The notes: generated by a model from the letters alone, not told the origin. A stretch of 64,000 nucleotides of DNA from a bacterium (GCA_021817145.1 JAKAVV010000003.1:78764-142763); one strand, 5' to 3'. Positions 7,924-58,294 are shown, counted from the stretch's first letter. Made by a program: numbers and translations.

Positions 7924-7982
7924 TAATCATTCCAAGTCTATCCATTAGACTTGAGTTTAAAATAATTTAGGAGTTTTGTTTT

Positions 7983-12436: not shown

Positions 12437-12444
12437 AATTTTGA

Positions 12445-12849
12445 ATGGAGGAGTTCCCTTTTTCTCCTCATATTGAATGTCCTTTTTGCAGGGAAGAAAT
12501 CGTTCGTCCTGTAAAAGCGATTACTACGACCTGTCCAAATTGCGGTAAAACTATTTCACTGGACAACCGTATTTTTAACCAAAAGTATGTTTTTTCAGGA
12601 GAAATTGTGACAAGAGGCAATATTTCTGTTGGGGAAAAGGGATTTGTAAAAGGGAATCTTTCAGCAGCAGAGATTGTGATTGAAGGAACTGTGGAAGGAA
12701 ATGTGAAAGCTGTTGAACGGATTCAATTGGGTCATTCCAGCCATTTAACAGGAAATGCGGAAACCGAAAGATTGATTGTTTTGGAAGGAGCCACTCTACT
12801 AGGAGATGTGAAAATAGGATTGAGAAGTAGAAGAAAAGAGAATGTTTAA
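12445..12849 (+). CDS. Bactofilin with N-terminal C4 zinc-ribbon (CPFC..CPNC)
   Basis: CPFCREEI..CPNCGK is followed by the bactofilin repeats GNLSAAEIVIEGTVEGNVKAVERIQLGHSSHLTGNAETERLIVLEGATLLGDVKIG. Confidence 0.7.
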   Translation: MEEFPFSPHIECPFCREEIVRPVKAITTTCPNCGKTISLDNRIFNQKYVFSGEIVTRGNISVGEKGFVKGNLSAAEIVIEGTVEGNVKAVERIQLGHSSHLTGNAETERLIVLEGATLLGDVKIGLRSRRKENV

Positions 12850-16992: not shown

Positions 16993-19770
16993 TTATTTAA
17001 TCTCTTCCGGCACTCTTCTTTCCTGGATAAATGGCAGCCCTATGTTTAATACAGGGGAACTGTAAGCAGTTGAGAGATTGGGGTTCCAGTAAGGATCCCC
17101 TTTTTCTATCAGGTCCTTGTATTTTCCTAAAAACCAGCGGGTTTCATTTTCAGAAGGGATATCTTGAGATCCTCGAGTCTGTCTCCCATAATGAAAAAGC
17201 TGAGAATAGGGGGTATAAAGATTAAGATAACCCTTCTTAAAAGCTCTTATGCAGAAATCAACATCTGTATAATTGATTTTGGAGCTTTCGTCAAATCCTC
17301 TCAACTTTTCGAAAATATCTTTTCGCACCATTAAACAGGCTCCTGTGACAGCCATGACATTTTTTATCCAGTTTGCGTCACGATACTCATCTTTCTGATT
17401 TTCGAGTTGATTCGCCGCAGTGCCAATTCCTCCGGTTGAATTAGGAATCCATCCCATTCCTACCACAATCCCTGCATGTTGAATGTTCTTGTCTTGATCA
17501 TATAATTTTGCGCCTACACATCCGATCTCTTTTCTTAAAGCATGCATTAACATTTCTTGAATCCAGTCAGGTGTTATGACTTCTGTGTCATTATTGAGAA
17601 ACAAAAAAACTTCTCCATTCGCATACCGCGCTCCAAAATTATTGATGGCTGACCAGTTAAATGGATTGTTCCACTGAAGAATTCTAATTTTATCATTGGT
17701 TTTTAATGTTTCATAAAAATTGAAGGTTTCTTCTTTTCCGCTGTTATTTTCTATAATTATGATTTCGTAATTAGACCAAGTTGTTTTGTTCAAAATTGAA
17801 TGAATGCACTTTTCAATAAGCCCAGTATTGTCTTTATTTGGGATAAGGATAGAAACTTTTGGATTTCCTTGGATGGCATAACTGGTTTTATAGACACAGA
17901 GATAAAAGCCTGGTTCTACTTCTCCTTGTATTCCTCTTCGTTCCAGATGCTGTTTTAAAGCTTTTATGGAAGATTGAATAGTTCCTGACATTTTGTTTTG
18001 TGAATTTTCGGCAGCTGATCCTTCATGAGCTCTCCAGTGGTACAGGACTTTTGGAATGTGTAAGATTTGCGCCGTTTTCTCGCTAATTCTTAGAAACAAG
18101 TCGTGGTCCTGGCTGAACTCGAAATCTTCTCTGAATCTTCCAATTTCCTTGAACAATTTTTTTCGTATAACAGCTAGATGGTTGATATAATTGTGACTTC
18201 TTAAAAGATCAGGGCTCCAATCTGGTTTGAAGTGGGGGTCATATCTTTTTTTCCCATCTTCAGAAAGGACATCTTCATCTGAATAAATCAAATCGGTATT
18301 TGGATTTTCTTCAATGGCTTTTACGACTTCTGAAAGGGCAAAAGAGGCAAGAGTATCATCATGATCCATCAATGCCACAAATTCCCCTTTTGACATGGAG
18401 ATAGCTTTATTGGTATTTCCCGCAATCCCTAAATTTTGAGCCAAATGCAGTACTTTTATTCTCGCGTCTTTTTGTGAATACTCCTCAAGGATCTCTTTTA
18501 TATGAGGGGATCTGCTCCCACCATTGACAAGACAAAGCTCCCAATTAGGATAGGTCTGACTCAAAACGCTTTCCAGCATTTCAATTAAAAAATTTCGAGG
18601 GGTCTCAAAAATAGGGACTGCAATTGAAATTTTTACTTTATTTGACTCATGGTTAGTGTTGATGACTGGAATAATTTTTTCATTCTGATTTAATTGTTCA
18701 GAGTGGGGTTCATGGAGGTAAATCCACCAGTTGTACTGGTCCAAATCCACTTTTTGTGGTTTTGGATATAAAGAAACTTTTTTTCGGATTGTTTTCTTAT
18801 CCGCTTCATTTAGCCTCTGGGCATTTTCACCAAATCTCTCCTTCAGCATTTTAGGGATTTTTCTTGATAGATCGCGGATACCTGCTTGTTTCTCTTTGGA
18901 AGGGGATAATTTATTCGCTATCTTGAGCATTTCAAGAGCGGTATCATAAGGAGTATCTGGTCGTTTTAAAGAGTCTTTTGAAAGGGTCAAATACTCATTT
19001 GCAATGATTTCATTCCGAAATGGTTCTTTATAATGCAAATAATCAGAAAATAGTTCTTCTGGGGGGAGGCTCCAAAGATGTTTTAAACATGCGTAATCAA
19101 CTCTGTACCTTTGTTTTTGAGCATTGAATATCTGATTCTGGTCATGGACCCGATAAATATATAAAGGAGCTTCCAGTTTTCCGATAGGGAAAAACTGAAC
19201 AGCTCTGCACCAGAAATCAAAATCATCCACTCCTGAAAGATCCTCATCCAGTATTCCAATGGTTTCAAAGACTTCTTTTTTAATTAAAGTTGTTCCAAGC
19301 GGGATAAAACATCCGAGAAAAAGAGTTCTGTAAATTTGAGGTTTTGGAGGGGGAGAGAGCATTTTTGTATAAATGTTTCTTCCTGCATTAACTGCCCAGA
19401 TGATATAATCCCCATACGAGATCCCTACACTCGGATATTTCTGCATAAATTTTAGAGAGTACTCGATTTTGTAAGGAAACATGAGATCATCCTGATCAAA
19501 GAGTTGAATATACTCCCCCTGTGAATTTGCGATCCCTGTGTTTCGAGCTCCAGCCACCCCTTTATTTTTGCTGTGCGAGATTAATCTTACTCGCGAGTCT
19601 TTTTTTTGGTATTCTTTCACGATTTCAGCGGTATTGTCAGTGGATTTGTCGTTCACCACCAGAATCTCTAAATGAGGATATGTTTGGGTTAAACAGCTTT
19701 TTAAAGACTGCTGAATAAACTTTTCTCCGTTAAATGCGGCTATTACAACAGAAACCAGAGGATTGGACAT
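16993..19770 (-). CDS. Tri-modular glycosyltransferase: three GT2 (GT-A) domains in one 925-aa polypeptide
   Basis: Three separate GT2 N-terminal signatures: VSVVIAAFNGEKFI..LVVNDKSTDNT, then ISIAVPIFETPRNF..CLVNGGS, then VSILIPNKDNTGLI..IIIENNS. Each carries DxD-type motifs (DQDD, DHDD, NNDTE). Confidence 0.8.
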   Translation of the reverse strand: MSNPLVSVVIAAFNGEKFIQQSLKSCLTQTYPHLEILVVNDKSTDNTAEIVKEYQKKDSRVRLISHSKNKGVAGARNTGIANSQGEYIQLFDQDDLMFPYKIEYSLKFMQKYPSVGISYGDYIIWAVNAGRNIYTKMLSPPPKPQIYRTLFLGCFIPLGTTLIKKEVFETIGILDEDLSGVDDFDFWCRAVQFFPIGKLEAPLYIYRVHDQNQIFNAQKQRYRVDYACLKHLWSLPPEELFSDYLHYKEPFRNEIIANEYLTLSKDSLKRPDTPYDTALEMLKIANKLSPSKEKQAGIRDLSRKIPKMLKERFGENAQRLNEADKKTIRKKVSLYPKPQKVDLDQYNWWIYLHEPHSEQLNQNEKIIPVINTNHESNKVKISIAVPIFETPRNFLIEMLESVLSQTYPNWELCLVNGGSRSPHIKEILEEYSQKDARIKVLHLAQNLGIAGNTNKAISMSKGEFVALMDHDDTLASFALSEVVKAIEENPNTDLIYSDEDVLSEDGKKRYDPHFKPDWSPDLLRSHNYINHLAVIRKKLFKEIGRFREDFEFSQDHDLFLRISEKTAQILHIPKVLYHWRAHEGSAAENSQNKMSGTIQSSIKALKQHLERRGIQGEVEPGFYLCVYKTSYAIQGNPKVSILIPNKDNTGLIEKCIHSILNKTTWSNYEIIIIENNSGKEETFNFYETLKTNDKIRILQWNNPFNWSAINNFGARYANGEVFLFLNNDTEVITPDWIQEMLMHALRKEIGCVGAKLYDQDKNIQHAGIVVGMGWIPNSTGGIGTAANQLENQKDEYRDANWIKNVMAVTGACLMVRKDIFEKLRGFDESSKINYTDVDFCIRAFKKGYLNLYTPYSQLFHYGRQTRGSQDIPSENETRWFLGKYKDLIEKGDPYWNPNLSTAYSSPVLNIGLPFIQERRVPEEIK
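19541..19631. repeat. Copy 1 of a ~90-bp near-identical DNA segment shared by two paralogous GT2 genes (core aatcttactcgcgagtctttttttt)
   Basis: Read directly. A 50-bp core matches 26214-26262 with 3-4 mismatches. It encodes ..KKDSRVRLI.. in both proteins. Confidence 0.7.
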
Positions 19771-26969: not shown

Positions 26970-27890
26970 TTAACGCAGCCAGAGCTCTGATGGAAGTTGT
27001 GGATTACTTAAAGCGTTTGCATTCATTCTTTTCTCTGCTTCTTCATAAGCCACTGCCACTGAACAGCATTGAAGTGGAACAATGGATAAAGCGACAATAA
27101 ATGTAAAAAGGCTTACCGGTATAGCAATAAAAGGAGAAAAAGTTTCAAAAAGCTTTCCTCCAATAGATATTAGAATGCCAAATAAAGGAAAATAAATGAA
27201 GAGAATAATGAGGGGAAATAAATTTCTGTCAACCAGGGATCTGCTTTTACTCATAGCTTCTAAAAACCCTGTCTTTTCTTCAGCAAGTATCGGTTTTACA
27301 AATCGATAGGCAAGAAAATAGTAAAAGAAAGCCGTGATCAAAATAAAAAGCCCGATGATGTAAATCGGATTTAGAAAAAATCCATCTATCCATCCGATAA
27401 GACCAAATCCAATGCTTGATAGTAAAAGCCAGGAGAAAAGGAAGGAATGGATGAGATTACCCCAAAATTTTTGAAATTGAAAGAATTCTGGGAATTTTGC
27501 TTCACGATTTTTTAAAACGTTGAATGCCAGCTTATAGCAGCCAATTGAAAATTGTGAAGAAACAATGGCGAAAAAAGGGATGCCAATGATGCAGAAGAGT
27601 GGGAATAAAAGAGTAAAAGAAATTTGAGTCGTGATTTTTGAAGAAAAAATAAAAAGAAAAAATGACCGCAGCAAAGTGGCAATCTGCTGATGGATCATAG
27701 GTTGATGAGATATTGTAAACGGAGAAATAAAAATTGTTGAGATTGAGATGAAGAGGACAAACAGCCCTATAAAATAAACGAATCCGAGAAACCCTGAGAT
27801 TAAAAGATGAGTAAAGATCCAGGCTATAAATAAGCCAGCGCGTTTTCTAAAAATCCCTGCAGCTTTAGAAAGAGAAGCCCAAATTTGCAC
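26970..27890 (-). CDS. Polytopic integral membrane protein, unknown function
   Basis: About 8 hydrophobic segments. It sits at the edge of the glycan island. No family recognised. Confidence 0.45.
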   Translation of the reverse strand: MQIWASLSKAAGIFRKRAGLFIAWIFTHLLISGFLGFVYFIGLFVLFISISTIFISPFTISHQPMIHQQIATLLRSFFLFIFSSKITTQISFTLLFPLFCIIGIPFFAIVSSQFSIGCYKLAFNVLKNREAKFPEFFQFQKFWGNLIHSFLFSWLLLSSIGFGLIGWIDGFFLNPIYIIGLFILITAFFYYFLAYRFVKPILAEEKTGFLEAMSKSRSLVDRNLFPLIILFIYFPLFGILISIGGKLFETFSPFIAIPVSLFTFIVALSIVPLQCCSVAVAYEEAEKRMNANALSNPQLPSELWLR

Positions 27891-27968
27891 GTTTTCTCAT
27901 TACAACGTTTTACTTTGTTATCCTGCTTTAAACCAGCAGTTTTAAAACTAACAAGGAATTTCAGGATC

Positions 27969-29357
27969 ATGCAAAGAACCGTGTCCAAAATGCAAGTTTC
28001 GCCTCAAAAAAGTAAGGTTTCGAATCAAGAAATAGGATTTATCCTTTTAGCTTTGATTCTTCCCCTTCTCTTTTTTCTTATTTCCGCTTTTTTTCTCTTT
28101 AAAAAAAATGAAGGAACAATTTTGATGGCAGGAATTAATACGAATCAGAAATGGATAGTAAAAATTTGCATAAATACAGGTATCAATTTAAATAAACAGT
28201 ACAGCCTTCCTTATGGCATCACTTTTCCTGTTTATCCTAAACCCTTAAATCCATATAAAACAACCCCTCTTATTCTAGCCTGTACTGTAAGAAAATTAGG
28301 AATAGCAAAAATCTTGATTCGTGATGGGGCTCTAATCAATCAGTCTGTTCAGAATGGAACAACCCCTCTTTTAGCTGCTGCTGCAGTTTCCCGCTTGTCC
28401 CCTTTATTCGCTTTAAAGGCAGTAATATATAAAGGAAAAGATTTGAAATTGGTCCGTTTTCTCTTACTCCATGGAGCTGATGTAAGCTGCATAAATCACC
28501 GAGGACAAACCCCTTTAATGTTAGCCGCTCAATCAGGAGATTTTCAAGTAGTTCGCCTGCTTTTAAGAGATCATGCTGCCCTTCATGTCATGGATAAAAA
28601 TGGCAAAACCCCTTTGATGTATGCGGCTCAAGGAGGGAATCTTAAAATTATACGTTTTTTGCTTTCAAAAGGAGTCAGTCCAGCAGCAGAAGATAAAAAC
28701 GGTAGTACAGCAGCAGTTTTGTCCAAAAATTTTAAAGTTGCGAAGTTTCTTCTTTCTCGACTGCCTGTTGGTTTGCGCGGCTTGCAAGCCAGTAAATTTT
28801 ATCTTCTTATGGCTAAAAAAGGCGAGTGGTACTATTTTTATCAACCTGTTTTGCCAGGTGTGAATCTTGCCAATGTAAAAAGTCCTCATTCTGGTATGAC
28901 CCTTCCTTTTTATGCGGTTTTACAGAATAATCTTTATGCGGCTCGGTACCTTCTTTCTCATGGAGCTAATGTTAATGCAAGGGACAATATTGGGCAGACC
29001 CCTTTAATGCTTTCGTGCTTACATGTCGAATATCCGATGACTAAAATGCTTGTAAGAGCAGGAGCTTCCATTAATCTACAAGATAATCAGGGGAGAACCG
29101 CCTTAATGTATTCGATTACATCAGGTCGATATGCCCATTTAACTCCTAATCTTAATATTTCGTTTTATCTTATTTCAAAAGGTGCAAAATTAAATTTAAA
29201 AGATCGGAAGGGTAGAACTGCCTTGTGGTATGCCGAACGTGAAAGCCAGCAGATTATATCGCTTATTAATGGAGTTTACAATTCAGAAGCTACACGGGCA
29301 ACACGGGCTAGAATGAAAAATATCGTAAAAATTTTAAAACAGCACGGCGCACATTGA
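27969..29357 (+). CDS. Ankyrin-repeat protein with N-terminal transmembrane anchor
   Basis: Multiple ..G.TPLM.AA..G....V..LL..GA..N repeats. The ATG at 27969 follows an AAGGAA RBS; the ORF track start at 27885 would overlap the divergent gene. Confidence 0.75.
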   Translation: MQRTVSKMQVSPQKSKVSNQEIGFILLALILPLLFFLISAFFLFKKNEGTILMAGINTNQKWIVKICINTGINLNKQYSLPYGITFPVYPKPLNPYKTTPLILACTVRKLGIAKILIRDGALINQSVQNGTTPLLAAAAVSRLSPLFALKAVIYKGKDLKLVRFLLLHGADVSCINHRGQTPLMLAAQSGDFQVVRLLLRDHAALHVMDKNGKTPLMYAAQGGNLKIIRFLLSKGVSPAAEDKNGSTAAVLSKNFKVAKFLLSRLPVGLRGLQASKFYLLMAKKGEWYYFYQPVLPGVNLANVKSPHSGMTLPFYAVLQNNLYAARYLLSHGANVNARDNIGQTPLMLSCLHVEYPMTKMLVRAGASINLQDNQGRTALMYSITSGRYAHLTPNLNISFYLISKGAKLNLKDRKGRTALWYAERESQQIISLINGVYNSEATRATRARMKNIVKILKQHGAH

Positions 29358-29369
29358 CAGCATAAGTAG

Positions 29370-29444
29370 TGGCGGGCCAGGCAGGACTTGAACCCACGGC
29401 ATTCGGTTTTGGAGACCGACGTTCTACCACTGAACTACTGGCCC
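29370..29444 (-). tRNA. trnW: tRNA-Trp (anticodon CCA), CCA end encoded
   Basis: Reverse complement: GGGCCAGTAGTTCAGTGGTAGAACGTCGGTCTCCAAAACCGAATGCCGTGGGTTCAAGTCCTGCCTGGCCCGCCA. The cloverleaf was folded by hand: 7-bp acceptor stem, GTTC/GAAC D-stem, anticodon loop CTCCAAA, TTCAAGT T-loop. Confidence 0.85.
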
Positions 29445-46190: not shown

Positions 46191-47960
46191 CTACTGCCGA
46201 GCTGCTGCAACGACCTGATTTCTTCCTTTTTCTTTGCTTTCATAAAGAGCTTTGTCAGCCTGAAGCAGCAGATCTGATTTATTTGATGAGTCATCGGGAT
46301 AAGAAGCAACTCCAATACTGCTCGTGATTTTTACTTTACTGATTCCTGTATTGATTCTGAGCTCAACCGCTTCTCGGATCCGTTTAGCAATTGAGACTGC
46401 AGTCTCCTTTGTTGTTTCCAGAAGAAGAATCGCAAATTCGTCCCCTCCGTATCGGCATACAATATCTGATTCTCGCGTGCAGTCTTTTAATATCTGGCTG
46501 ATTTTTTTCAAAAGGGCATCCCCCTGTGGATGACCATAAGTATCATTATACTCTTTAAAATGATCCAGATCCAGCATAATTAAACATAAGGGCTGATGGT
46601 ATCGTTCACTTCTTTTGACCTCTTCGACCAGCTTTTCCTGAAAGAAGCGGTGGGTGTAAAGTCCTGTCAGCCCGTCTGTTTTAGCCAGTGTTACTGTTTT
46701 TTCATAATTTTCAGCATGAACTAAAATCATGGTTGCCTGATAGGCAAGGAGAGTCAGCAGTTGGAGATTAGCCTCAGTATAAGCCATAGGTTCCGGACTT
46801 CCGATATAAATGACTCCTTTGACTTCTTCTTCCACAATGAGAGGAACAGCCATTTCTGACAGTTCGTTTTCGATAAGCAGAGAGTAAGAGCGCGCTTTTT
46901 GTTTTGTGCTTAAAAAGCTTTTTTTCTCTTCTGCGCACATTCCAACAATTGTTTCTCTTGAACGCACATGAAGATTTTTACATAGATTTCCATAAGGAGA
47001 GTCAAAGCGGCTGGATTGAAGAACGATAGAAGATTTATCTGGATTAGCAAAAAAAATGATGCAGCTTTGATAATTAAAAAGTTGTTTAAAATACTCCAGG
47101 ATAACCTTAAAAGTGTAATCTAAGGTAAGGTTGGATCCTATTTTTTTGCCAAAGTCTAAAATCAACCCTTGTTCAAAGTTTTTCTTTTCAACGGTTTGTT
47201 CTAAATCTTCAGAATGTTTTTTCTCATGTTCTAGATCTAACTTTGTTTTTTCCAGCTCTTCAAGGATGACAGCGCTTGTTTTTACAGGTTCTTTTTTCAG
47301 CAGAGAGAAAAGAAGCAGCTGAAGAAGAAAAACGCAGATCGCTAAAAGCAAGGCATTCTCCTGATTCTTATAGAGAGCAGCAGCTGTTCCAAGGAAAGGG
47401 GCGGTAAAACTCAAAAGAAGGGTTTGATATCGGGCTTTAAACCACTGCGCCTGAGCTGATTCAAGAAGAGAAGCTCCAATGGCAACTCCTTCTAAAAAAG
47501 CCTCAAAAATAGAGTAAAGCGGAGCAGAACTGAGTATCATCAAGTAATGGATAGTATGGGGCTGAGGTTCTTTCGATAAAATAATAACAGGTATCGCCGC
47601 AAAAAGGACAGTAAGAAGTTTTTGAAAAGGATAGAAAAACTTTAAAGATGCCGGGCTTTGAGGGTCTTTTAAAAAAGCTCTGAGCGAGGCGCCGACAAAT
47701 GCGGTAACAGCGCATAAAAGAATCGCTTGATGAAGGATGAGATACAGATAAAAAGCGCTGGATAAACTTGACCATCCTGAATAGGGGAGGGAAGGGGAAA
47801 AAATTTCCAGGAACAAGGCTGAAATAACCGCTGCGGCAATCGCTGTAGTTTCTCCATTTTGATAGGTTGGAACAATAAAAGCCGTGATCCCAAATCCCAC
47901 CAGGGAAATCAGGATTAAAATGAATAATAAGATTTTAGATTGAACTTGTTCTGTTTTCAA
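46191..47960 (-). CDS. Membrane-anchored GAF-GGDEF diguanylate cyclase
   Basis: About 6 N-terminal TM helices, a GAF-like middle, and the GGDEF domain with GLTGLYTHRFF..RYGGDEFAIL. Confidence 0.8.
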   Translation of the reverse strand: MKTEQVQSKILLFILILISLVGFGITAFIVPTYQNGETTAIAAAVISALFLEIFSPSLPYSGWSSLSSAFYLYLILHQAILLCAVTAFVGASLRAFLKDPQSPASLKFFYPFQKLLTVLFAAIPVIILSKEPQPHTIHYLMILSSAPLYSIFEAFLEGVAIGASLLESAQAQWFKARYQTLLLSFTAPFLGTAAALYKNQENALLLAICVFLLQLLLFSLLKKEPVKTSAVILEELEKTKLDLEHEKKHSEDLEQTVEKKNFEQGLILDFGKKIGSNLTLDYTFKVILEYFKQLFNYQSCIIFFANPDKSSIVLQSSRFDSPYGNLCKNLHVRSRETIVGMCAEEKKSFLSTKQKARSYSLLIENELSEMAVPLIVEEEVKGVIYIGSPEPMAYTEANLQLLTLLAYQATMILVHAENYEKTVTLAKTDGLTGLYTHRFFQEKLVEEVKRSERYHQPLCLIMLDLDHFKEYNDTYGHPQGDALLKKISQILKDCTRESDIVCRYGGDEFAILLLETTKETAVSIAKRIREAVELRINTGISKVKITSSIGVASYPDDSSNKSDLLLQADKALYESKEKGRNQVVAAARQ

Positions 47961-50435: not shown

Positions 50436-50957
50436 GAGAGCTAGCCGGGTGATCGCGGAGCTGAGAGTCGAGAAGTTAGATTAAGATTCGCGCTTCGAGG
50501 AAAGTCCGAGCTCCACAGGATAAGGTGCTGGGTAATACCCAGTAGAGGCGACTCTAGCAAAGTGCCACAGAAATGTTAACCGCCATAAGATCTTTTACAA
50601 ATCGCCTGTCCGGCAAAAATAAGATCTGTGGTAAGGGTGCAACGGCGGGGTAAGAGCCCACCAGTCATCTGGCGACAGATGAGCTAGGCAAACGCCACCT
50701 GGAGCAAGATCAAGCAGGGGGAACATTTATCGGATCTGTTGATGCAGCTTAGGTATGTGTGTGAAGGGTTGGTCATCAATGGGTTTATAAGATAATGTTA
50801 TGTAATCCTGGCAGTACCCCGGGTCGATCGCTAGAAACTGTCCAGTAATGGCAGTTCAAGATAGATGATCACCTTCTGCTCAATGCCAATAAAAGCTCCG
50901 TTAGAGCTGAAAAATGGCAGGATGCAGAAACAGAACTCGGCTTACAGGTTAACTCTC
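50436..50957 (+). ncRNA. rnpB: RNase P RNA (bacterial type A-like), unusually long
   Basis: GAGGAAAGTCCGAGCTCCACAGG (P4 5' strand). ACAGAAATGTTAACCGCC. GGGTGCAACGGCGGGGTAAGAGCCCACCAG. CCACCTGGAGCAAGATCAAGCAGGGG. ACAGAACTCGGCTTACAGG (P4 3' strand). Covariation with the E. coli M1 RNA pair GUCCGGG/CCCGGCU appears here as GTCCGAG/CTCGGCT. The ends are approximate. Confidence 0.85.
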
Positions 50958-51293
50958 TATTTTTTTTATTTTCTCGCTATCTACTGTTCCATCTTCTCGT
51001 TCTATCTGAATAAAAGGATCCCGATAAAGCGGTGATAATCCACTGTATCTGCACTTAACTTCATTGTGATAACAAGGAAGAATATTGCCGCAGTAAATAG
51101 ATCCCTGTTCCCCTTTAACAGAAGAGTTTTTGTAATCTGGATATTCTACAAGAATCGGCACACTTTTTTGCAAAATAAAACAAAACTTCTCTTGAGGCTC
51201 AAGAGCTTTTTGTTTTAATTGAACTTCAACCGCTTTTTTCCGAAGGCTCATTCTATTGGCTTCATCATACCATAACAAGGGGATAAAAAGCAA
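50949..51293 (-). CDS. Hypothetical protein (114 aa)
   Basis: ORF only. Its 3' end abuts the rnpB 3' end. Confidence 0.3.
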   Translation of the reverse strand: MLFIPLLWYDEANRMSLRKKAVEVQLKQKALEPQEKFCFILQKSVPILVEYPDYKNSSVKGEQGSIYCGNILPCYHNEVKCRYSGLSPLYRDPFIQIEREDGTVDSEKIKKIES

Positions 51294-51377: not shown

Positions 51378-52259
51378 ATGGCAAAGTTTTTTGGGCAGTA
51401 TTTATTGGAGAAAGGAATTCTTACCAGAGAACAGCTTTTAGAAGCTTTAACAAAACAGAGAGAAAAAGTTGAAAAAATAGGGGAACTGGCTGTTCGTAAA
51501 GGGTATTTAAAACCTCGCGACATTGAAGCGATTCAAAGGGAACAGCAGAAAAGCGATCTTTATTTTGGGGAAGCTGCTGTTAAACTTAATCTGCTGACAG
51601 AAGATCAGGTGAGAGAATTATTGAATATTCAAAGATCAAATCATGTTTACCTTGGAGAAATCATTGTGGATTTAAAATTTTTATCTAAAGAATCGGTGGA
51701 AAAAGAATTGAAAAGATTTCAGGAAGAAGAACAAGAAGGGGGAAGTGTCGGTGAACTGCATGTTCCATCTTCCTGCGCTCATCCCGAGCTGTTAAAAGCG
51801 ACGGCAGATTTGGCGATTAAACTTTTTCGGCGTGTTTCAGATTTGCTGGTAAAAGTTTCCACTGTGCTGGATACTGAAAAAGTCGAAAATCCCTATTCCC
51901 TGACTTTTATTAATATCAGCGGGGATTTTAAAGGCTCTCTTGCCCTAGGATGCTCAAAAAATGTCGTTCTTCATATTGCGAAAAATTTTGGAGGCAGCCG
52001 TCTAGATTGGAGCAGTGAAAAATTTGCTCACGACGCTGTTTCGGAATTTTTTAATATTTTCTGCGGAAATTTAATGACAAAATGGATGGAAATAGGGAAA
52101 TCTTGCGAGATTTCGGTTCCTTATTTTTTTCTGAAAACAGAGAAAGACGGTTTAAAAATCGGGAACGGCGCGCGCGTTTTTACTTTGGATTTAGACTCAA
52201 CTGAAGGAAAAGCTTCTGTCAGTCTTATTCCAAATTTTATTTTAGAAAAAACTGTTTAA
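51378..52259 (+). CDS. Tandem MshEN-type (T2SS-E N-terminal, c-di-GMP-binding) domains fused to a CheX-like CheY-P phosphatase domain
   Basis: Four consecutive 24-aa MshEN motifs: FGQYLLEKGILTREQLLEALTKQ, IGELAVRKGYLKPRDIEAIQREQ, FGEAAVKLNLLTEDQVRELLNIQ, LGEIIVDLKFLSKESVEKELKRFQ. The C-terminal half aligns with CheX: INISGDFKGSLALGCSKNVVLHIAKNFGG .. DAVSEFFNIFCGNL .. ISVPYFF, including the E-x-x-N catalytic pair. Confidence 0.65.
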   Translation: MAKFFGQYLLEKGILTREQLLEALTKQREKVEKIGELAVRKGYLKPRDIEAIQREQQKSDLYFGEAAVKLNLLTEDQVRELLNIQRSNHVYLGEIIVDLKFLSKESVEKELKRFQEEEQEGGSVGELHVPSSCAHPELLKATADLAIKLFRRVSDLLVKVSTVLDTEKVENPYSLTFINISGDFKGSLALGCSKNVVLHIAKNFGGSRLDWSSEKFAHDAVSEFFNIFCGNLMTKWMEIGKSCEISVPYFFLKTEKDGLKIGNGARVFTLDLDSTEGKASVSLIPNFILEKTV

Positions 52260-52287
52260 GGAACTCAATGGGAAAGGCGGATTTAAA

Positions 52288-52671
52288 ATGAGCTTACAGG
52301 ATAAAAAAGTAATGATTGTAGATGATTCAAAAGCCATGATTATGCTGCTGAAGCGGATTTTAGAAGAAGGCGGGTATCAAGTTGTGGGAGAGATACAAAC
52401 TGGGGAAGATGCCGTGATTCAGTATGATAAACTGAAACCCGATCTGGTTACAATGGATTTAATCCTACCTGGAATCAGCGGTATTGACGCGATTAAAAGA
52501 ATTTTAGGAAATGATCCCAAAGCTTGCATTGTAGCTGTCAGCTCTGTAGGTGGGACTCCAGAAAAATTAATGGATGCTTTAAAAGCCGGGGCGAGAAATG
52601 TTATTAGCAAACCTTTTGATCCAGAAAAAGTCACTAAAATTTTAAATGATGTTTTAGCTGCTCATAAATGA
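52288..52671 (+). CDS. Single-domain CheY-like response-regulator receiver
   Basis: IVDDS acidic pocket, phospho-acceptor TMDLILPG, conserved T/S and KPF. 127 aa. Confidence 0.8.
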   Translation: MSLQDKKVMIVDDSKAMIMLLKRILEEGGYQVVGEIQTGEDAVIQYDKLKPDLVTMDLILPGISGIDAIKRILGNDPKACIVAVSSVGGTPEKLMDALKAGARNVISKPFDPEKVTKILNDVLAAHK

Positions 52672-53900
52672 GCCCTTCCCCTGAAATTCCTTCCTGGCTT
52701 GAGGAAGAATCAAAAGAGCCTGCTGAAGAGAATTTAAGGGTTCCTATTCAACCTCATGTGCGGCCTATTAAAAAAAGGTCAAATTCAGCCCTGACTTTTA
52801 AAAAAATTTGGGAGGATAGAAGACAGTTAACGGGAAAATGGATCCCCCCTGTATCATTAAAAGTTAGTCTTAAAAACCTTTCCATATTTTCAAAACAGTT
52901 AGGGTTAATGATGGGTTCAGGGGTTACTCTTGTGAAGGCATTTGATATTTTAGGAACTCAAGGGGAAGATAAAAAGTTAAGAGAAGCTGCTCTTAAAGTA
53001 AAAGAAGGAGTTCTTTCAGGGTATGCCATTAGTTCTGCCCTTGAAAAAAAACCTGATATTTTCCCCCCTTTTTTCCGTTTTGCTGTACGCTCTGCTGAAA
53101 CTTCGGGAACTCTGCCCAAGACTCTTCTCAAACTGTCGGATTATTATGAAAAAATCAATTTGCAGAATCAGAAAGTGAAAGGCTCTCTTATTTATCCTGT
53201 TTTTGTTTTTGTGACTACTTTAGCTTTGTTTATGTTTTTGATCTCTTACATTTTTCCAATGTTTTCATCATTTTTTAAAGGGCTCCATTATCACCTTCCC
53301 TTGATTACTCGAATTCTGTTTTTCATTTTCCATTTATTGACAAGCGGCTGGTTTTGGGGGATTATTCTTGTTTTGGTGGTTGGTTTATATGCTGCATGGA
53401 AAACGAGCATAAAACGATCCGATTTTGCTTTATGGCTGAATATTCAGCAGCTGCAGATTCCTTTAGCTGGTCCCTGTTTGCAAAAAATTCAGAGTTCCTA
53501 TTTCTGCCGAACCCTTGCCACAATGCTGAATGCGGGGGTCAATCTTTTGACAGCTTTAGAAGTGTTTCAAAAAGGGATCGGAATGCCAGTCTTTAAAATT
53601 TTTTACAATAATATTCAGGAAGAGTTAAGAGCTGGATCCTCTTTGTCTCAAACCATAAAAGATATCTCTTTTTTTCCGCGGGCTGCTCAGGATCTAATCC
53701 TGGTTGGGGAAGAATCAGGAAATCTCTCGGCAATGTTGGAAAAAGCCGCTGATTTTCTGGATATTGAAATTGATACTTTAATTCAAAACTTAATGACTTT
53801 GATAGAACCCCTGCTTATTCTTTTTTTGGGGGTTATGGTGGCAGCGGTTTTGATAGGGATTTTTCTTCCTTTGTATTCGGCGATCAGCCAGATCCATTAA
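52668..53900 (+). CDS. pilC: Type IV pilus / type II secretion inner-membrane platform protein (PilC/GspF family)
   Basis: Two GspF-type repeats and three TM segments. Motifs LSKQLGLMMGSGVTLVKAFDIL and ..TLATMLNAGVNLLTALEV... ATGA overlap with the CheY gene. The first ~60 aa extend beyond the usual family N-terminus. Confidence 0.75.
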   Translation: MSPSPEIPSWLEEESKEPAEENLRVPIQPHVRPIKKRSNSALTFKKIWEDRRQLTGKWIPPVSLKVSLKNLSIFSKQLGLMMGSGVTLVKAFDILGTQGEDKKLREAALKVKEGVLSGYAISSALEKKPDIFPPFFRFAVRSAETSGTLPKTLLKLSDYYEKINLQNQKVKGSLIYPVFVFVTTLALFMFLISYIFPMFSSFFKGLHYHLPLITRILFFIFHLLTSGWFWGIILVLVVGLYAAWKTSIKRSDFALWLNIQQLQIPLAGPCLQKIQSSYFCRTLATMLNAGVNLLTALEVFQKGIGMPVFKIFYNNIQEELRAGSSLSQTIKDISFFPRAAQDLILVGEESGNLSAMLEKAADFLDIEIDTLIQNLMTLIEPLLILFLGVMVAAVLIGIFLPLYSAISQIH

Positions 53901-54000
53901 CAGGCGCAGCATGATTTCAATTAAATTGCGGGGAAAAGCCGTAAGGCTTTCGTAAATCGAGGTCTGTAGAGGCTGATTGGAATCTGAAATTTTCGGGGAT

Positions 54001-54029
54001 TTGAATTTTTTTCAACTTTGTAGTATAAT
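54001..54029 (+). promoter_or_regulatory. Consensus-like sigma70 promoter TTGAAT-17-TATAAT upstream of the pilin genes
   Basis: Read directly. The -35 is at 54001-54006, the -10 at 54024-54029, and the pilin start is at 54051. Confidence 0.5.
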
Positions 54030-54050
54030 TGGAATAACCGGAAATACTAA

Positions 54051-54452
54051 ATGATAAAATTGAAAGGGAAAAAAGGGATTAGTTTGCTGGAAGCCATGAT
54101 TTCTGTGGTCATTCTTGGAGTGGTTGCAGCGATTATGCTCGGAATTTTTCAAGTTTCATTCAACAGCATTTCGGATTCTTCTAACACTTATCTAGCAACT
54201 CTTATTGCCCAGAACAAAATGGAATATGACACTGAAAGTGGATATGCGGGGGTTGGAGGTCCGTCTATCGGTCCCTGGAAGCCTGTTTCTGTGCCTAATG
54301 GAAATCAGTATGCAACTTTTGAATGGCAGCAGTCTGTTCAGCAGGTAAATCTTGATTTGAAAGAGGTGGATATAACGGTTATGTGGAAGCAAAAAGGAGC
54401 TGCAGGCACATACAGAAAATATGTGATACTGTCCACAAGGATAGCCCAATGA
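54051..54452 (+). CDS. Type IV pilin / pseudopilin (prepilin-type N-terminal cleavage/methylation domain)
   Basis: MIKLKGKKG|ISLLEAMISVVILGVVAAIML: Gly at -1, Glu at +5, and a hydrophobic helix. 133 aa. Confidence 0.75.
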   Translation: MIKLKGKKGISLLEAMISVVILGVVAAIMLGIFQVSFNSISDSSNTYLATLIAQNKMEYDTESGYAGVGGPSIGPWKPVSVPNGNQYATFEWQQSVQQVNLDLKEVDITVMWKQKGAAGTYRKYVILSTRIAQ

Positions 54453-55153
54453 AAAAAGACGGGTTTTCAGGAATGACTTTAGTGGAAGTTTTAGTGGCTA
54501 TGATTGTGGTTGGTATTGTGATGAGCATTACTCTCGGAATTTTTGTTGCCAGCCGCCATTATTATCAGGCAGGATCCAGTCGTGTGGATGCGCAGTCTTC
54601 TGCTGAACTGGCATTAAATCGCTTAGTTCGAGAGATTCAAGAATCGGATCCTTCTGGAATCTCTACCCTTACTCCAGGAACTATTGTTTTAGTTTCGGCT
54701 AGAGAGGCTAATGGTAATCAGTTTGCAATCTATAATGGAATACCCAGCGGAAGCAGTACCCCTCCTTACTGCGGCAGCTCTCCTGCCTCAGATACAGGGA
54801 AGCCATGCTGGCAGAAATGGATTTGCTACTATTTAGCTCCACAGTCAGGGAGCAGTTATCAGGAGCTGATTCGAGTGGAAGGGAATCCAACAGGCTCTTC
54901 TTTCCCGAACACCGTGATCCCACCTTCTATTCCTTCTGCTCCTGCATTCCAGGGGGTTGGGCTTCCTCAAACTGTAATGGCTCGAAATATTAAAACATTT
55001 AATGTTCAGAGTTCCTGCGGTTTACCTGGAATTGATTATATTCAACTGACTGCAGCAGAAAACAACAATGGATTAACCATCACTTATAATCCTGGGTTCC
55101 AGGTTGGAAGCTGCGGGACAGGGAATTGGATTGAAGCGCTGCCGAGAAATTAA
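54449..55153 (+). CDS. Type IV pilin / pseudopilin (prepilin-type), 235 aa
   Basis: Start at the ATG that overlaps the upstream stop as ATGA. MKKDGFSG|MTLVEVLVAMIVVGIVMSI with Glu at +5. The ORF track's upstream extension from 54383 is unlikely. Confidence 0.7.
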   Translation: MKKDGFSGMTLVEVLVAMIVVGIVMSITLGIFVASRHYYQAGSSRVDAQSSAELALNRLVREIQESDPSGISTLTPGTIVLVSAREANGNQFAIYNGIPSGSSTPPYCGSSPASDTGKPCWQKWICYYLAPQSGSSYQELIRVEGNPTGSSFPNTVIPPSIPSAPAFQGVGLPQTVMARNIKTFNVQSSCGLPGIDYIQLTAAENNNGLTITYNPGFQVGSCGTGNWIEALPRN

Positions 55154-55168
55154 GGGGGTGGAACAAAA

Positions 55169-56461
55169 ATGAAGCATAAGAAAGGGATTGTTCTAGCGTA
55201 TGTTTTAATTTTTCTGCTGGTTTTAGTGGTGCTGGGTTTTGCTTTAGGTTCTTCTGGCATTTTTTCATTGTCCCGCTCATTTCAAATTCAAAATTCAACT
55301 TCTGCTCTGTATGCTGCTCAAGCGGGAATTGCTGATGAGGTTTATAATATTGAAGAGAATCAACTTGCGCCTGTTCCTCAATGTCCACCTTCTGTTGGTA
55401 ATAATAGTTATACTCTTCCGAACACCATTCTCCCCAATAATACCAGGATCTCAAATCAAACGATTTTAGCTAATTATGGAAGCGGATGTGCGAGTTCTGC
55501 TGTTATCAATGGGATTACCATCCCTCCTGGAATGGCTTATTTGAGCGCAGTGGGAAGTATTTCAACGACCCATAAAACAGTGAATGAACTGCTTCAAATT
55601 GACAGTTGGCCATTTCAGGGCGCAGGGTTTGGCAGCAGTTCTGTCGCATTAAGTGGAAATGCCTCAACTGATAGTTATGAATCTAAAGCTTGTGGAGGAG
55701 GGATGTATGGTGGAAGTAATATCTCTCAAGATGGAAATATAGGAACTAATTCTTCGTCAAATGGAGCTGTTGACTTAAGTGGAAACGCTGATATCGGAGG
55801 AGCTGTCAGTGTTGGACCTGGAGGAACGGCCGGATCTCCGACTGTTTCCACTTCAGGCAGTGTCAACTGCCCTGGATCTTCATGTTCTGGCGGAGTTAAT
55901 ATTCTTCCTGCTCCTTTTCCAATGCCAGTTATTACAGATCCTTATGGAGGGGCAGGAACAACTAATGTTAACCTTTCTGGAAGCACGAATTATGGAGTTC
56001 TTACCCCAGGGCAGTATGGAAGTATTTCTTTGTCTGGAACCTCTACTCTTGAATTGACTTGCGGGAATTATTCCATTAATAGTTTACAGATGAGTGGAAA
56101 TGGAGAAATCACGATTGATTCTTCATGTTCAGAATCAAACCCCGTAAAACTGTATGTTTACAACTCTTTAACAATTTCAGGGAATGGATTTATCAATAAT
56201 GAGGAAGCTCCTACTTTGTTGATTTACGGGATGCCTACTCTGACCACCGCATCTATTAGCGGCAATGGAAATGGAGGGTATGCCCTTTATGCTCCAAATA
56301 CTAACGTCACGATTACAGGGAATGGGGATCTTTACGGGTCAATTATTGGAAAAACAATCACTAACTCCGGAAACGCTAAAATCCACTATGACACATGTCT
56401 TGGGATAGATGCTTACACAAAACTCAATCTTCCTATTCCTAAAAGCTGGAACTCCCAGTGA
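55169..56461 (+). CDS. PilX-like minor pilin / pilus-tip protein with long Gly/Ser/Asn-rich repetitive (beta-helix-like) region
   Basis: Hydrophobic PilX_N-like N-terminus MKHKKGIVLAYVLIFLLVLVVLGFALGS with no Glu at +5. This is followed by ~350 aa of SGN/GGS-rich repeats (..SGNASTD.., ..SGNADIGG.., ..ISGNGNGG.., ..ITGNGDLYG..). Confidence 0.5.
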   Translation: MKHKKGIVLAYVLIFLLVLVVLGFALGSSGIFSLSRSFQIQNSTSALYAAQAGIADEVYNIEENQLAPVPQCPPSVGNNSYTLPNTILPNNTRISNQTILANYGSGCASSAVINGITIPPGMAYLSAVGSISTTHKTVNELLQIDSWPFQGAGFGSSSVALSGNASTDSYESKACGGGMYGGSNISQDGNIGTNSSSNGAVDLSGNADIGGAVSVGPGGTAGSPTVSTSGSVNCPGSSCSGGVNILPAPFPMPVITDPYGGAGTTNVNLSGSTNYGVLTPGQYGSISLSGTSTLELTCGNYSINSLQMSGNGEITIDSSCSESNPVKLYVYNSLTISGNGFINNEEAPTLLIYGMPTLTTASISGNGNGGYALYAPNTNVTITGNGDLYGSIIGKTITNSGNAKIHYDTCLGIDAYTKLNLPIPKSWNSQ

Positions 56462-56467
56462 AATGGA

Positions 56468-58294
56468 TTGAAAACTTTCCCCGTGATCCTTAATCATCAG
56501 TATGAAATTAAAGAAAAACTGGCTGAAGGGGCTAAAGGAGCTTTTTTTTCCGCTTTCAATCAAAAAAGCGGATCGAACTGTCTTGTTAAAGCTTACAGAA
56601 GCTTTTCAAAAGTGGAAGATTATCGAGGAATTCAGGAAGAGATAGACAGTCTTAAAAAAATTAAAGATAACGCGCCTCCTATTCTCTTAAAAGTTTTAGA
56701 TGTTTTTGAAGAAAACAAAGCCTGGTATGCGATTTTTGAGGAGATAAAAGGGGTTCCTTTAATGAAAGCTTTTTCTCCCTTAAAAGGACAGTTAAGCTCT
56801 GAAGAGACTCTGCGGTATTTTTTAGAACTAGTTGATGGAATTTCCATTTTGGAAAAGGAGAATGAAAATTTGAGAATCACCAGCCTCAGCCCTGAAAATA
56901 TCATCCTGACAGGAGAAGAGATTAAAATCTTGGATTTCGAACAAGACCTGGTCCTAGAGGGAAATCTATCCCCCTTGGAAAACACCCATTTTTTATCAGA
57001 ACAAGAAGTCTTAGAAAGATTGGGAAGAATATTGTATTTTCTCCTGACTCGAGAAACTCCCCCTTTTTCTCTTTCCAATTGGCGGGATCCCCGCGAGTTT
57101 AATCCTGGTTTGCACCCTGGACTGCTGAGCATTTTAAGAAAGTGTGTGGATCCAAGACCAGAAAAGCGGTTCCAAAATCTAGGAAATCTTCAAGCAGAAC
57201 TGCGCAGCCCTGATCTGCTCAAACAAAAAGAGAGAGAAAAAAAACAAGCTGATCTCCTTATTCCACTCAGCCAGATTTTACCCCAGGGAGAAAAAAAGGA
57301 AATTCCTGCCTGGAAAGCCATTTTAGCGATCCCTATCCTTCTTGGGTTTCTGTTTTTAATAAAATACAGTTTTAATTTTTTGTTCAGTTCCCCTTCGAAT
57401 TCTTCCCTTAAAAAGTTCGCTGTTCAAGAAAAAACATTGTGCGCTGCCATTCCAAAAGGGATTGGCTGGTTTAATCTAAAGACAGGAAAAGAGATTAAGT
57501 CCTTTCCACTAGCAGGAAATTTCAATGATCTGATTCCTGTCCCTTCTCTGCAAGAATTTATTGTCACGGACTCTAATTCAAACAGCGCTTTTTTGGTGAA
57601 CCCCAATCAGCCTGAAAATCGCTGGCATTTGATTTTCGACGGCGCTGTAAAAGCGATTGTTTTTAAGGCTTCAGATGGGCTTATCTATGTTTGCAGTGGA
57701 GAGGATCGGCAGATTGTTCAAACAACTCTAGAGGCAGACAGCGTTTTTTCTTCTACCATTCATTTTCCTTATCCACCTGTCCGGCTGATTCTTAATCCAT
57801 CAGGAAAAAAGCTTTATATTGCTTCAAGACATGATTTATCTCTTCGAGTTTTGGATACCAACGCAAACAGCGTGGAAAAGCTCTCTACTTTCCCTGAACC
57901 TCCTGTTCTTTTATATGCAGGGGAAAGCCGTCTAGCGGTTTATCTTCCTCAATCCCAAGTTTTAGAAGTATTAACTGTTTCAGGGAATCCAATCTCTTCA
58001 TTTCCCATTGATTTAAGCAAGGAATCTCAAATGATCTTCTTTCCTCCACATACCGGTATTATCTGGTCTCATGGGAAAAGTTTAAGGATTTTAAATTTAA
58101 AATTGGGTCAGATGATTCAAAGGATAAGACTGAGTTTTTCCCCCTTTCTTGCTGTCAAAGATCCTGGAACAAGGAAATTTTTCATGGCGGGGAAAAGAGG
58201 AGGGATTTATCTTTTTTCTCTTGAGAATCCTGATTCTCCACAAAAAATATTTGTTCTCCCAGGAGTCTCTGCATTGAGTGTCTGGGATCCGTAG
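56468..58294 (+). CDS. Membrane-anchored protein-kinase-like (probably catalytically dead) domain + TM + C-terminal beta-propeller (YVTN/WD40-like)
   Basis: Kinase-like subdomains: LAEGAKGAFFSA, CLVKAY (VAIK-like Lys), SPENIIL (KPEN-like) and ILDFE (DFG-like). The HRD Asp position reads ITS. TM segment AILAIPILLGFLFLI. C-terminal repeats such as LIYVCSGEDRQI.. and KKLYIASRHDLSLRVLD. Confidence 0.55.
   Translation: MKTFPVILNHQYEIKEKLAEGAKGAFFSAFNQKSGSNCLVKAYRSFSKVEDYRGIQEEIDSLKKIKDNAPPILLKVLDVFEENKAWYAIFEEIKGVPLMKAFSPLKGQLSSEETLRYFLELVDGISILEKENENLRITSLSPENIILTGEEIKILDFEQDLVLEGNLSPLENTHFLSEQEVLERLGRILYFLLTRETPPFSLSNWRDPREFNPGLHPGLLSILRKCVDPRPEKRFQNLGNLQAELRSPDLLKQKEREKKQADLLIPLSQILPQGEKKEIPAWKAILAIPILLGFLFLIKYSFNFLFSSPSNSSLKKFAVQEKTLCAAIPKGIGWFNLKTGKEIKSFPLAGNFNDLIPVPSLQEFIVTDSNSNSAFLVNPNQPENRWHLIFDGAVKAIVFKASDGLIYVCSGEDRQIVQTTLEADSVFSSTIHFPYPPVRLILNPSGKKLYIASRHDLSLRVLDTNANSVEKLSTFPEPPVLLYAGESRLAVYLPQSQVLEVLTVSGNPISSFPIDLSKESQMIFFPPHTGIIWSHGKSLRILNLKLGQMIQRIRLSFSPFLAVKDPGTRKFFMAGKRGGIYLFSLENPDSPQKIFVLPGVSALSVWDP

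Follow-up and report, generated by a model that had tools for sequence, protein, structure and literature searches.

A Candidate c-di-GMP/CheY~P Signaling Pair, an MshEN–CheX Fusion and Its CheY, Beside a Common Type IV Pilus Cassette

Introduction

To our knowledge, input of cyclic di-GMP (c-di-GMP) to chemotaxis-type phosphorelays is known for few cases, namely, the YcgR-type brakes, MapZ–CheR1, the Cle proteins, and, recently, PlzC–CheX. In this study, we analyze a gene pair that may provide another one: a protein in which MshEN repeats are fused to a CheX-type phosphatase domain, and the single-domain CheY encoded next to it, at positions 51378–52671 of a 64,000-nucleotide stretch of bacterial DNA (GCA_021817145.1, JAKAVV010000003.1:78764-142763; hereafter, the window, with positions counted from its first letter). 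Genes of a type IV pilus (T4P) follow the pair on the same strand, and the question is whether the pair is tied to them.

The (MshEN_N)2–CheX architecture was listed, with Geobacter lovleyi Glov_2742, by Wang et al. (2016; Nat Commun 7:12481; PMC5013675, Suppl. Table 4), who reported it in Deltaproteobacteria and Firmicutes and suggested a c-di-GMP input to chemotaxis. The window fusion has an identical order and number of domains, and relatives from Geobacter and other Desulfobacterota were recovered in our scan. The architecture, regarded as non-canonical in a first-pass annotation made from the window sequence alone, had thus already been catalogued and is not novel. In Vibrio cholerae, the PilZ protein PlzC modulates CheX and, through it, CheY-3~P (Park et al., 2026, PNAS, PMC12799141).

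Results

Domain Structure of the Fusion Protein and Its CheY Neighbor

The pair consists of the following genes, separated by 28 nucleotides (nt):

51378..52259, + strand: (MshEN_N)2–CheX fusion, 293 amino acids (NF053729 and PF13690, PDB profiles, AlphaFold2/Foldseek)
52288..52671, + strand: single-domain CheY-type receiver, 127 amino acids (Response_reg 91.4 bits; 1tmy)

The fusion is matched in two stretches by the NCBIfam model NF053729.1 “c-di-GMP_motif, MshE-related” (75.2 bits, cut-off 38), and by the PDB profiles of MshE (5htl, 1.4e-4) and PilF (6f8l, 8.5e-8). The MshEN motif considered was RLGxxLVxxGILxxxxLxxxLxxQ, in two copies joined by a 5-residue spacer. Four such 24-residue motifs (residues 4–27, 33–56, 62–85, and 91–114), with a spacer of exactly five residues each, fill the N-terminal 114 residues and, by the definition of Wang et al. 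(2016), amount to two complete MshEN_N units. Motifs 1–3 have Gly3, the hydrophobic pairs, and the terminal Gln24; these residues, along with the 24+5+24 register, are kept across phyla in an alignment of 74 sequences. Motif 2 has Gln at position 21 instead of a hydrophobic residue. Motif 1 begins with Phe, in the invariant family signature FFGQYLL, at the position of the guanine-stacking Arg9 of MshE. Among the turn glycines, unit 1 keeps G13 and G42, and unit 2 of the window protein has N71 and K100 at positions occupied by Gly in 70–80% of the aligned family. Unit 1 is near-canonical apart from Phe for Arg at position 1, and the window fusion is predicted to bind c-di-GMP, mainly via this unit. 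In the AlphaFold2 (AF2) model, the N-terminal hairpins superpose on the c-di-GMP-bound GSPII-B of Thermus thermophilus PilF at 1.1–1.4 Å over 56–58 columns (Foldseek). The profile search also gave weak DUF4388 matches to the repeats.

The CheX domain (residues ~136–285) follows a linker and is matched by PF13690 (49.9 bits, cut-off 27) and PF04509 (24 bits, cut-off 22), as well as by the PDB profile of Thermotoga maritima CheX (1xko, E 7e-10, ExxN in register). Its active site, D219-x3-E223-x2-N226-x21-P248, is intact (reference signature D/S-x3-E-x2-N-x22-P), with E and N conserved in at least 90% of sequences and aligned with ExxN (GELGNM) of 1xko. The predicted structure of the fusion (mean predicted local distance difference test, pLDDT, 83.4), proposed as a check in the first-pass annotation, fits both halves: apart from the PilF hairpins, Foldseek retrieves the CheX structures 3hm4, 1squ, and 1xko (E 1e-10, target template modeling score, TM-score, 0.80–0.86) and 3hzh_B, the CheX chain of the Borrelia burgdorferi CheX–CheY3 complex (target TM-score 0.70).

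The second gene encodes one receiver (REC) domain (PF00072, 91.4 bits) with D12, D13, D57, S85, and K108 intact, and the protein is ~50% identical to the chemotaxis CheYs of T. maritima (1tmy) and Pyrococcus horikoshii (E 3e-30 to 4e-31). CheY of the Thermotoga type is the type served by the CheC/CheX/FliY phosphatases.

Conservation of the Fusion–CheY Pair

Relatives of the fusion were found in 105 loci in a scan of one genome per species, and 80 of these loci were examined. They come from Nitrospirota/Thermodesulfovibrionia, Binatia, Acidobacteriota/Thermoanaerobaculia, Myxococcota, Desulfobacterota, Spirochaetia, Planctomycetota, Elusimicrobiota, Sericytochromatia, Verrucomicrobiia, unclassified metagenome-assembled genomes (MAGs), and Gammaproteobacteria, including the cultured Pseudoteredinibacter isoporae LMG 25246 (L072); L053 is from Oceanospirillales CP093399. 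An exhaustive profile search yielded 533 fusion-family clusters at 50% identity (E ≤ 1e-30), mostly of ~285 amino acids. Longer members of 600–700 amino acids (P0148, P0236) carry additional domains.

In 61 of the 80 loci, an immediate same-strand neighbor of the fusion gene encodes a single-domain CheY (46 upstream, 15 downstream). In five more, REC is part of the fusion polypeptide itself, at the C-terminus (L007, L011, L014) or at the N-terminus (L042, L079); such triple-fusion open reading frames (ORFs) are ~416–430 amino acids long and occur in Spirochaetia, Elusimicrobiota, and unclassified MAGs. The REC fusions mirror both gene orders and provide Rosetta-stone evidence that the phosphatase and CheY work together. 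Thus, CheY is adjacent or fused in 66 of 80 loci, and CheY, not pili, is the conserved partner of the fusion. This pairing lends genomic support to the prediction that the CheX domain acts as a CheY~P phosphatase. The suggestion of the first-pass annotation that the fusion and CheY form a c-di-GMP/CheY~P signaling pair thus finds, as a prediction, strong backing in the genome comparison.

Genes for CheA–CheW, CheB, CheR, and methyl-accepting chemotaxis proteins (MCPs) are found near the pair in at least 22 of 80 loci, this being a lower bound, as the CheB and MCP filters were too strict (two loci each); in L002, a HisKA kinase gene lies directly upstream. In many genomes, the context points to a chemosensory pathway. 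In other loci, the neighbors are unrelated housekeeping genes, or the pair stands alone.

DUF4388/PATAN proteins flank the pair in 11 of 80 loci. These flanking genes are directly adjacent to the CheY–fusion pair in L048, L052, L070, and eight other loci (Thermoanaerobaculia, Sulfomarinibacteraceae), where they encode proteins of 413 and ~730 amino acids (the latter with PAS/V4R) beside the CheA–CheW/CheB/CheR set. Contacts of PATAN domains with T4P motors have been described, and this sub-clade may therefore be better suited to a search for a pilus or gliding link.

The Neighboring Pilus Genes

The features next to the pair, and a cyclase gene farther away, are as follows:

52668..53900, + strand: PilC/GspF platform protein, 410 amino acids, two T2SSF domains (PF00482 190.6 bits)
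54001..54029, + strand: promoter-like site TTGAAT-17-TATAAT, possible internal promoter (10/12 consensus matches)
54051..54452, + strand: prepilin 1, 133 amino acids, G/ISLLE, Glu5 (N_methyl 25 bits, cut-off 21.2)
54449..55153, + strand: prepilin 2, 234 amino acids, G/MTLVE, Glu5 (N_methyl 24.4 bits; gene call in L084); 54449 is the most likely start
55169..56461, + strand: PilX/GspK-like protein, 430 amino acids, C-terminal DUF7305 (PF23981 60.7 bits; PilX_N E 0.0095)
56468..58294, + strand: pseudokinase–transmembrane–β-propeller protein, 608 amino acids; alternative start 56483 (Pkinase 43.6 bits)
46191..47960, − strand: membrane GAF–GGDEF diguanylate cyclase (Pfam GAF and GGDEF; motif check)

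Together with the pair, these make seven ORFs on the + strand at 51378–58294, all at the positions given in the first-pass annotation and, as it had described, in two tight blocks: 51378–53900 (fusion, CheY, PilC) and 54051–58294 (prepilins 1 and 2, PilX-like protein, kinase–propeller), divided by 150 nt between PilC and prepilin 1. The CheY and PilC genes overlap by 4 nt (ATGA), as do, also by 4 nt, those of the two prepilins; prepilin 2 is followed by the PilX-like gene after 15 nt, and the latter by the kinase–propeller gene after 6 nt. The profile searches proposed earlier matched all of the MshEN, CheX, Response_reg, T2SSF, N_methyl, and Pkinase models, and residues and folds agree with these domain calls. 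Also as noted before, the window contains no PilB/PilT/GspE-type ATPase, PilMNOPQ, or secretin: a six-frame Walker-A scan and the Pfam-annotated gene lists revealed no T2SSE ATPase, PilM/N/O/P, secretin, or prepilin peptidase in the 64 kb, and, more generally, none of the following parts of a full T4P or type II secretion system (T2SS) machine: ATPase, PilM/N/O or GspL/M, secretin, major pilin, peptidase.

The site between the two blocks, earlier called a consensus sigma70 promoter, is indeed near-consensus, and TATAAT is likewise found in the PilC–pilin gap of the sister genome L001; however, the designation was overstated, as promoter-like sites across the region number 20 vs. 15.4 ± 3.7 in shuffled sequences, i.e., not above chance. 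Hence, the promoter is plausible, not demonstrated.

PilC is a polytopic membrane protein of ~400 amino acids matched by PF00482 in two stretches; it scores 266 bits with TIGR02120 and falls below the equivalog cut-offs of both the PilC and the GspF model, so that it is assigned to neither subtype. Both prepilins have the class III signal (Gly, cleavage, three hydrophobic residues, Glu5, and then a hydrophobic helix), and prepilin 1 is matched by TIGR01707 (gspI) below the cut-off (E 1.2e-5). The PilX/GspK-like protein has a hydrophobic N-terminal segment without Glu5 and Gly/Asn/Ser-rich repeats; the GspK/PilX-type proteins also have no Glu5. By size, order, and weak profile matches, the two prepilins and the 430-residue protein resemble a tip set of the GspI/J/K or PilV/W/X type.

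The first-pass annotation regarded this pilus unit as non-canonical, but the order PilC–pilin–pilin–DUF7305 recurs in ordinary T4P clusters. The DUF7305 protein has 106 homolog clusters, several with PilX_N and IMG “PilX” names. The order in L091 is PilM – MshEN/T2SSE ATPase – PilC – pilin – pilin – DUF7305 – REC, and in L093, three pilins – DUF7305 – ... – PilM – PilO – secretin. In the sister MAG L090 (GCA_027421725.1), a second pilin–pilin–DUF7305 cassette at 6834–9230 is 46/48/40% identical to the window trio. Thus, PilC–pilin–pilin–DUF7305 is a recurrent, common T4P cassette, and the pseudokinase alone is lineage-specific. The literature search retrieved no characterization of DUF7305, nor of CheX linked with PilC.

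Some details of these clusters may be recorded. The PilM–PilB–PilC–pilin–DUF7305 operon of L091 is flanked by genes of PAS-containing histidine kinases, and the REC gene at its end (9238–9621) is weakly similar to the window CheY, with an acidic pocket ED rather than DD. The paralogous cassette of L090 has neither PilC nor the kinase, and a weakly matched PilZ-domain gene lies 6 kb downstream of it.

Distribution of the Pilus Link

Outside the window's own MAG group, L001 (69% identity) is the one locus in which the fusion–CheY pair is followed by PilC, the pilins, the DUF7305 protein, and the kinase. Collinearity with the window spans all 20 kb of L001 and takes in GGDEF, two hypothetical genes, RNase P RNA, RNase H, and other genes. 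Since unrelated genes are part of this collinearity, the shared order reflects common descent and counts as one observation, and L001 was rejected as independent support. In relatives at 58, 53, 49, and 45% identity, which lack PilC at this place, the fusion is still followed by CheY, and then by a Usp/PCP_red protein, MarR, or a convergent gene on the opposite strand. Hence, in the neighborhood comparison that the first-pass annotation had recommended, the fusion–CheY pairing proved conserved, and the order fusion–CheY–PilC did not extend beyond the window lineage and L001.

We further scanned the 80 loci (1.21 Mb) with the window proteins, the GspE Walker-A pattern, and PilB, PilM, PilC, secretin, and DUF7305 seeds, those for PilB, PilM, secretin, and DUF7305 being taken from L091 and L093. 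No homolog of PilB, PilM, secretin, or DUF7305 was found in the 78 loci other than those of the window lineage and L001, and the sole further PilC match was in L005, a partial ORF of ~300 amino acids at a distance of 9 kb, truncated by the end of the contig.

The Pseudokinase–Propeller Protein

The last gene of the cluster encodes a kinase-like region (residues ~12–250), a transmembrane segment (~279–306), and β-strand repeats (~318–595), the Pkinase match covering the N-lobe only. In agreement with the earlier pseudokinase call, HRD is replaced by I137-T138-S139 (the sister genome has Asn in place of Asp), the catalytic-loop Lys by S141, and DFG by DFE, while K41 and N144 are kept. As the catalytic Asp, the catalytic-loop Lys, and the DFG Gly are all replaced, the protein is predicted to be inactive. 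Its AF2 model, built from a two-sequence alignment, is poor (pLDDT 51), and therefore only the β-propeller half is usable, the C-terminal half matching β-propellers only; for the kinase half, the evidence comes from Pfam and an inspection of motifs. Among 5.8 billion proteins, homologs form two clusters only, confined to the window lineage.

Other Features of the Window

The membrane GAF–GGDEF protein mentioned in the first-pass annotation was found upstream of the cluster, with GGDEF and the RxxD I-site intact. Two genes and the RNase P RNA lie between the cluster and its gene, which is on the opposite strand, and the cyclase is a possible, unlinked source of c-di-GMP.

The RNase P RNA (bacterial class A, 50437–50960, + strand, 255.8 bits) is 85% identical to that of L001 (9057–9579); its span of 524 nt vs. 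the 367-position model implies large insertions. An ORF for 114 amino acids on the − strand (50949–51293) overlaps its 3′ end by 12 nt. At 27885–29357 (+ strand), next to tRNA-Trp (29370–29444, − strand), a 490-residue protein (462 residues as called) contains many ankyrin repeats; such proteins are uncommon among free-living bacteria. Tandem bactofilin genes (11948–12849, + strand; 162 and 134 amino acids) are flanked by genes for the carbamoyl-phosphate synthase small chain and a glucodextranase-like GH15 protein. A 925-residue protein with three GT2 glycosyltransferase domains in a row (16993–19770, − strand) is encoded at the head of a glycan-synthesis region (~17–27 kb) with more GT2, GT1–TPR, FdtA, and methyltransferase genes. 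The NCBI labels of >90% identical proteins from the window lineage conflict (Candidatus Eremiobacteraeota vs. Firmicutes/Bacillota), so that the lineage appears taxonomically unplaced and no phylum is claimed for it.

Discussion

Taken together, the locus is best described, and we consider this fairly probable, as two neighboring units, a c-di-GMP-modulated CheY~P phosphatase with its CheY, and a common T4P cassette beside them. Unit A (51378–52671) would be a two-gene module of a CheX-type phosphatase with two MshEN_N units and a cognate Thermotoga-type CheY. Unit B (52668–58294) would be a T4P cassette of PilC and GspI/J/K-like minor pilins, including the DUF7305 PilX-like protein, that may have gained a lineage-specific membrane pseudokinase with an extracytoplasmic β-propeller.

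Given the established domains, catalytic and binding residues, folds, and conserved pairing or fusion with CheY, Unit A could operate as follows. A histidine kinase, CheA or one encoded elsewhere, would phosphorylate CheY, and the CheX domain would strip the phosphate from CheY~P via E223/N226. Binding of c-di-GMP to the MshEN repeats, chiefly to the first, near-canonical unit, would alter the phosphatase activity or access to it, so that the lifetime of CheY~P would follow the c-di-GMP level. The binding of c-di-GMP, the direction of regulation, the identity of the kinase, and the output of CheY~P are what we infer here.

Several observations weigh against this interpretation. Position 1, for which the reference motif has Arg (or K/P/N), is an invariant Phe (F4) in motif 1 and Tyr in motifs 3 and 4, and only motif 2 has Lys. 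As both turn glycines of unit 2 are replaced in the window protein, it may bind one ligand or none. The predicted TM-score of the AF2 model, 0.57, leaves the domain arrangement, and hence any autoinhibition model, undefined. No kinase for CheY is encoded in the window, and the literature search retrieved no experimental work on any MshEN–CheX fusion protein.

The gene order suggests a more specific role, which was also the one put forward in the first-pass annotation: the fusion and CheY could be dedicated regulators of a pilus or secretion platform, with CheY~P acting on PilC or on the docking ATPase and c-di-GMP setting the level of CheY~P. The seven genes are tightly packed on one strand, and pilC begins within the last 4 nt of cheY in the window and 3 nt after it, with an internal Shine–Dalgarno sequence, in L001; hence, Unit A is probably co-transcribed with pilC in the window lineage, which makes pilus assembly a candidate output there. 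REC proteins are known at T4P, as PATAN–REC regulators of Synechocystis bind PilB1 as well as PilC's N-terminal domain via PATAN (DUF4388) (bioRxiv 10.1101/2021.06.11.447907); DUF4388/PATAN proteins flank the pair in some loci, as described above, and a REC gene also closes the ordinary T4P cluster of L091. However, in the same Synechocystis system it was PATAN that mediated the binding, and plain CheY-type regulators bound no pilus proteins; the window CheY has no PATAN, and its ~50% identity is to flagellar-chemotaxis CheYs. Moreover, the gene order amounts to a single evolutionary observation, the four relatives at 45–58% identity have other genes downstream of the fusion and CheY, and PilB, PilM, secretin, and DUF7305 are not found in the scanned loci beyond L001. 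Co-transcription alone is insufficient for shared function. Thus, the dedicated-regulator role is doubtful, and the pilus is a possible, if rather unlikely, output in the window lineage; the pilus link is weak, a single-lineage juxtaposition and not a property of the family, and there is little support for a new kind of pilus regulator.

The second alternative concerns the repeats. They could be α-hairpin (“α-clip”) interaction or dimerization modules, and the protein, a localized CheX independent of c-di-GMP. This would explain why motif 1 begins with an invariant Phe rather than the guanine-stacking Arg, why motif 2 has Gln at position 21, and why unit 2 of the window protein has lost both turn glycines; similar repeats occur in PATAN and in the N1 domains of ATPases, which contact inner-membrane pilus parts, the repeats give weak DUF4388 matches, and at least one MshEN homolog, XpsE, has lost c-di-GMP binding (PMC5013675). 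On the other hand, the match to the NCBIfam c-di-GMP-motif model is well above its cut-off (75 vs. 38 bits), motifs 1–3 retain their exact register, Gly3, hydrophobic pairs, and terminal Gln across phyla, and the hairpins fit c-di-GMP-bound PilF at ~1.1 Å. An aromatic Phe could still stack on guanine, and mutation of Arg9 in MshE changes the affinity less than 5-fold, compared with more than 10-fold for mutations of the hydrophobic residues. We therefore regard a c-di-GMP-independent function of the repeats as unlikely.

A more elaborate scenario, which is quite improbable on the present data, is that the window lineage has recruited the MshEN2–CheX/CheY pair to switch a type IV filament in response to c-di-GMP. 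The N-terminal domain of PilC would be the docking site of either CheY~P or the PilB-N1-like hairpin repeats of the fusion, which would compete there with the assembly ATPase. Occupation of the platform by the motor or by the regulator would depend on c-di-GMP, and the membrane pseudokinase–β-propeller protein would inform this platform of the state of the periplasm or surface. If true, this would be a new route from c-di-GMP and a phosphorelay to pilus assembly, bypassing the usual mechanism with MshEN on the ATPase.

Finally, an origin of gene 1 from a PilB/GspE gene that was split or decayed, with its MshEN end accidentally joined to CheX, named in the first-pass annotation as the alternative to a new regulator and suggested by the PilM and MshEN–T2SSE ATPase genes occupying the place upstream of PilC in L091 and by the lack of an ATPase in the window, is effectively refuted, as the protein is full length and conserved end to end in a large family of its own (533 clusters at 50% identity, with lengths around 285 amino acids), is marked by a signature of its own, FFGQYLLEKG, keeps its CheY partner where no pilus genes are nearby, and shows no match to the N-terminus of the L091 PilB.

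Comparison With Known Systems

Returning to the preferred reading, a CheY~P phosphatase modulated by c-di-GMP beside a common T4P cassette, we see several described systems that share some of its features. The window fusion belongs to a catalogued family and is a good candidate for cis-wired c-di-GMP control of CheY~P. The fusion family, if it functions as predicted, would be the most direct c-di-GMP/CheY wiring possible, as the phosphatase of CheY~P would itself carry the receptor; the family comprises hundreds of 50%-identity clusters from many phyla, and the CheY neighbors and REC fusions supply a concrete candidate substrate. The entry of Wang et al. (2016) is confined to a supplementary table, without a binding test, partner, or function; the CheY neighbor, the REC triple fusions, and the wider phyletic range are added by the present analysis. 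The window copy differs from the catalogued architecture by its degenerate second unit.

The PlzC–CheX–CheY3 system resembles the proposed pair in that a protein of a c-di-GMP receptor family tunes CheY~P via a CheX-type phosphatase. PlzC, however, is a separate protein acting in trans with the flagellar motor as the output, and its effect on motility was reportedly separable from c-di-GMP binding (PMC12799141), whereas the MshEN repeats of the window protein are fused in cis. T. maritima CheX (1xko) and the B. burgdorferi CheX–CheY3 complex (3hzh) have a fold in common with the window CheX domain (target TM-score 0.70–0.86) and the same catalytic signature; canonical CheX is a single domain of ~150 amino acids, to which the window protein adds a 120-residue N-terminal receptor extension, with CheY encoded next door. 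The MshE/PilB/PilF ATPases (5htl, 8pdk) share with the fusion the 24-residue tandem motif, the 5-residue spacer, and the hairpin structure, but the fusion has no ATPase domain, Phe instead of Arg at position 1, and four serial motifs rather than two.

As for the pilus genes, the window unit is similar to the minor-pilin operons of type IVa pili and T2SS (fimU-pilVWXY1E; gspHIJK): it likewise encodes a small GspI-like, a larger GspJ/PilW-like, and a Glu5-less PilX/GspK-like protein, along with a two-T2SSF platform protein, but has no major pilin, ATPase, PilMNOPQ, or peptidase nearby. The pseudokinase–β-propeller protein occupies the slot of PilY1, also a β-propeller protein, but is a bitopic membrane protein and unrelated to PilY1 in sequence. 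The PknD-type Ser/Thr kinases have the same topology, a kinase domain, a transmembrane segment, and an extracellular β-propeller; in contrast to them, the window protein is predicted to be inactive, and its homologs are restricted to one lineage.

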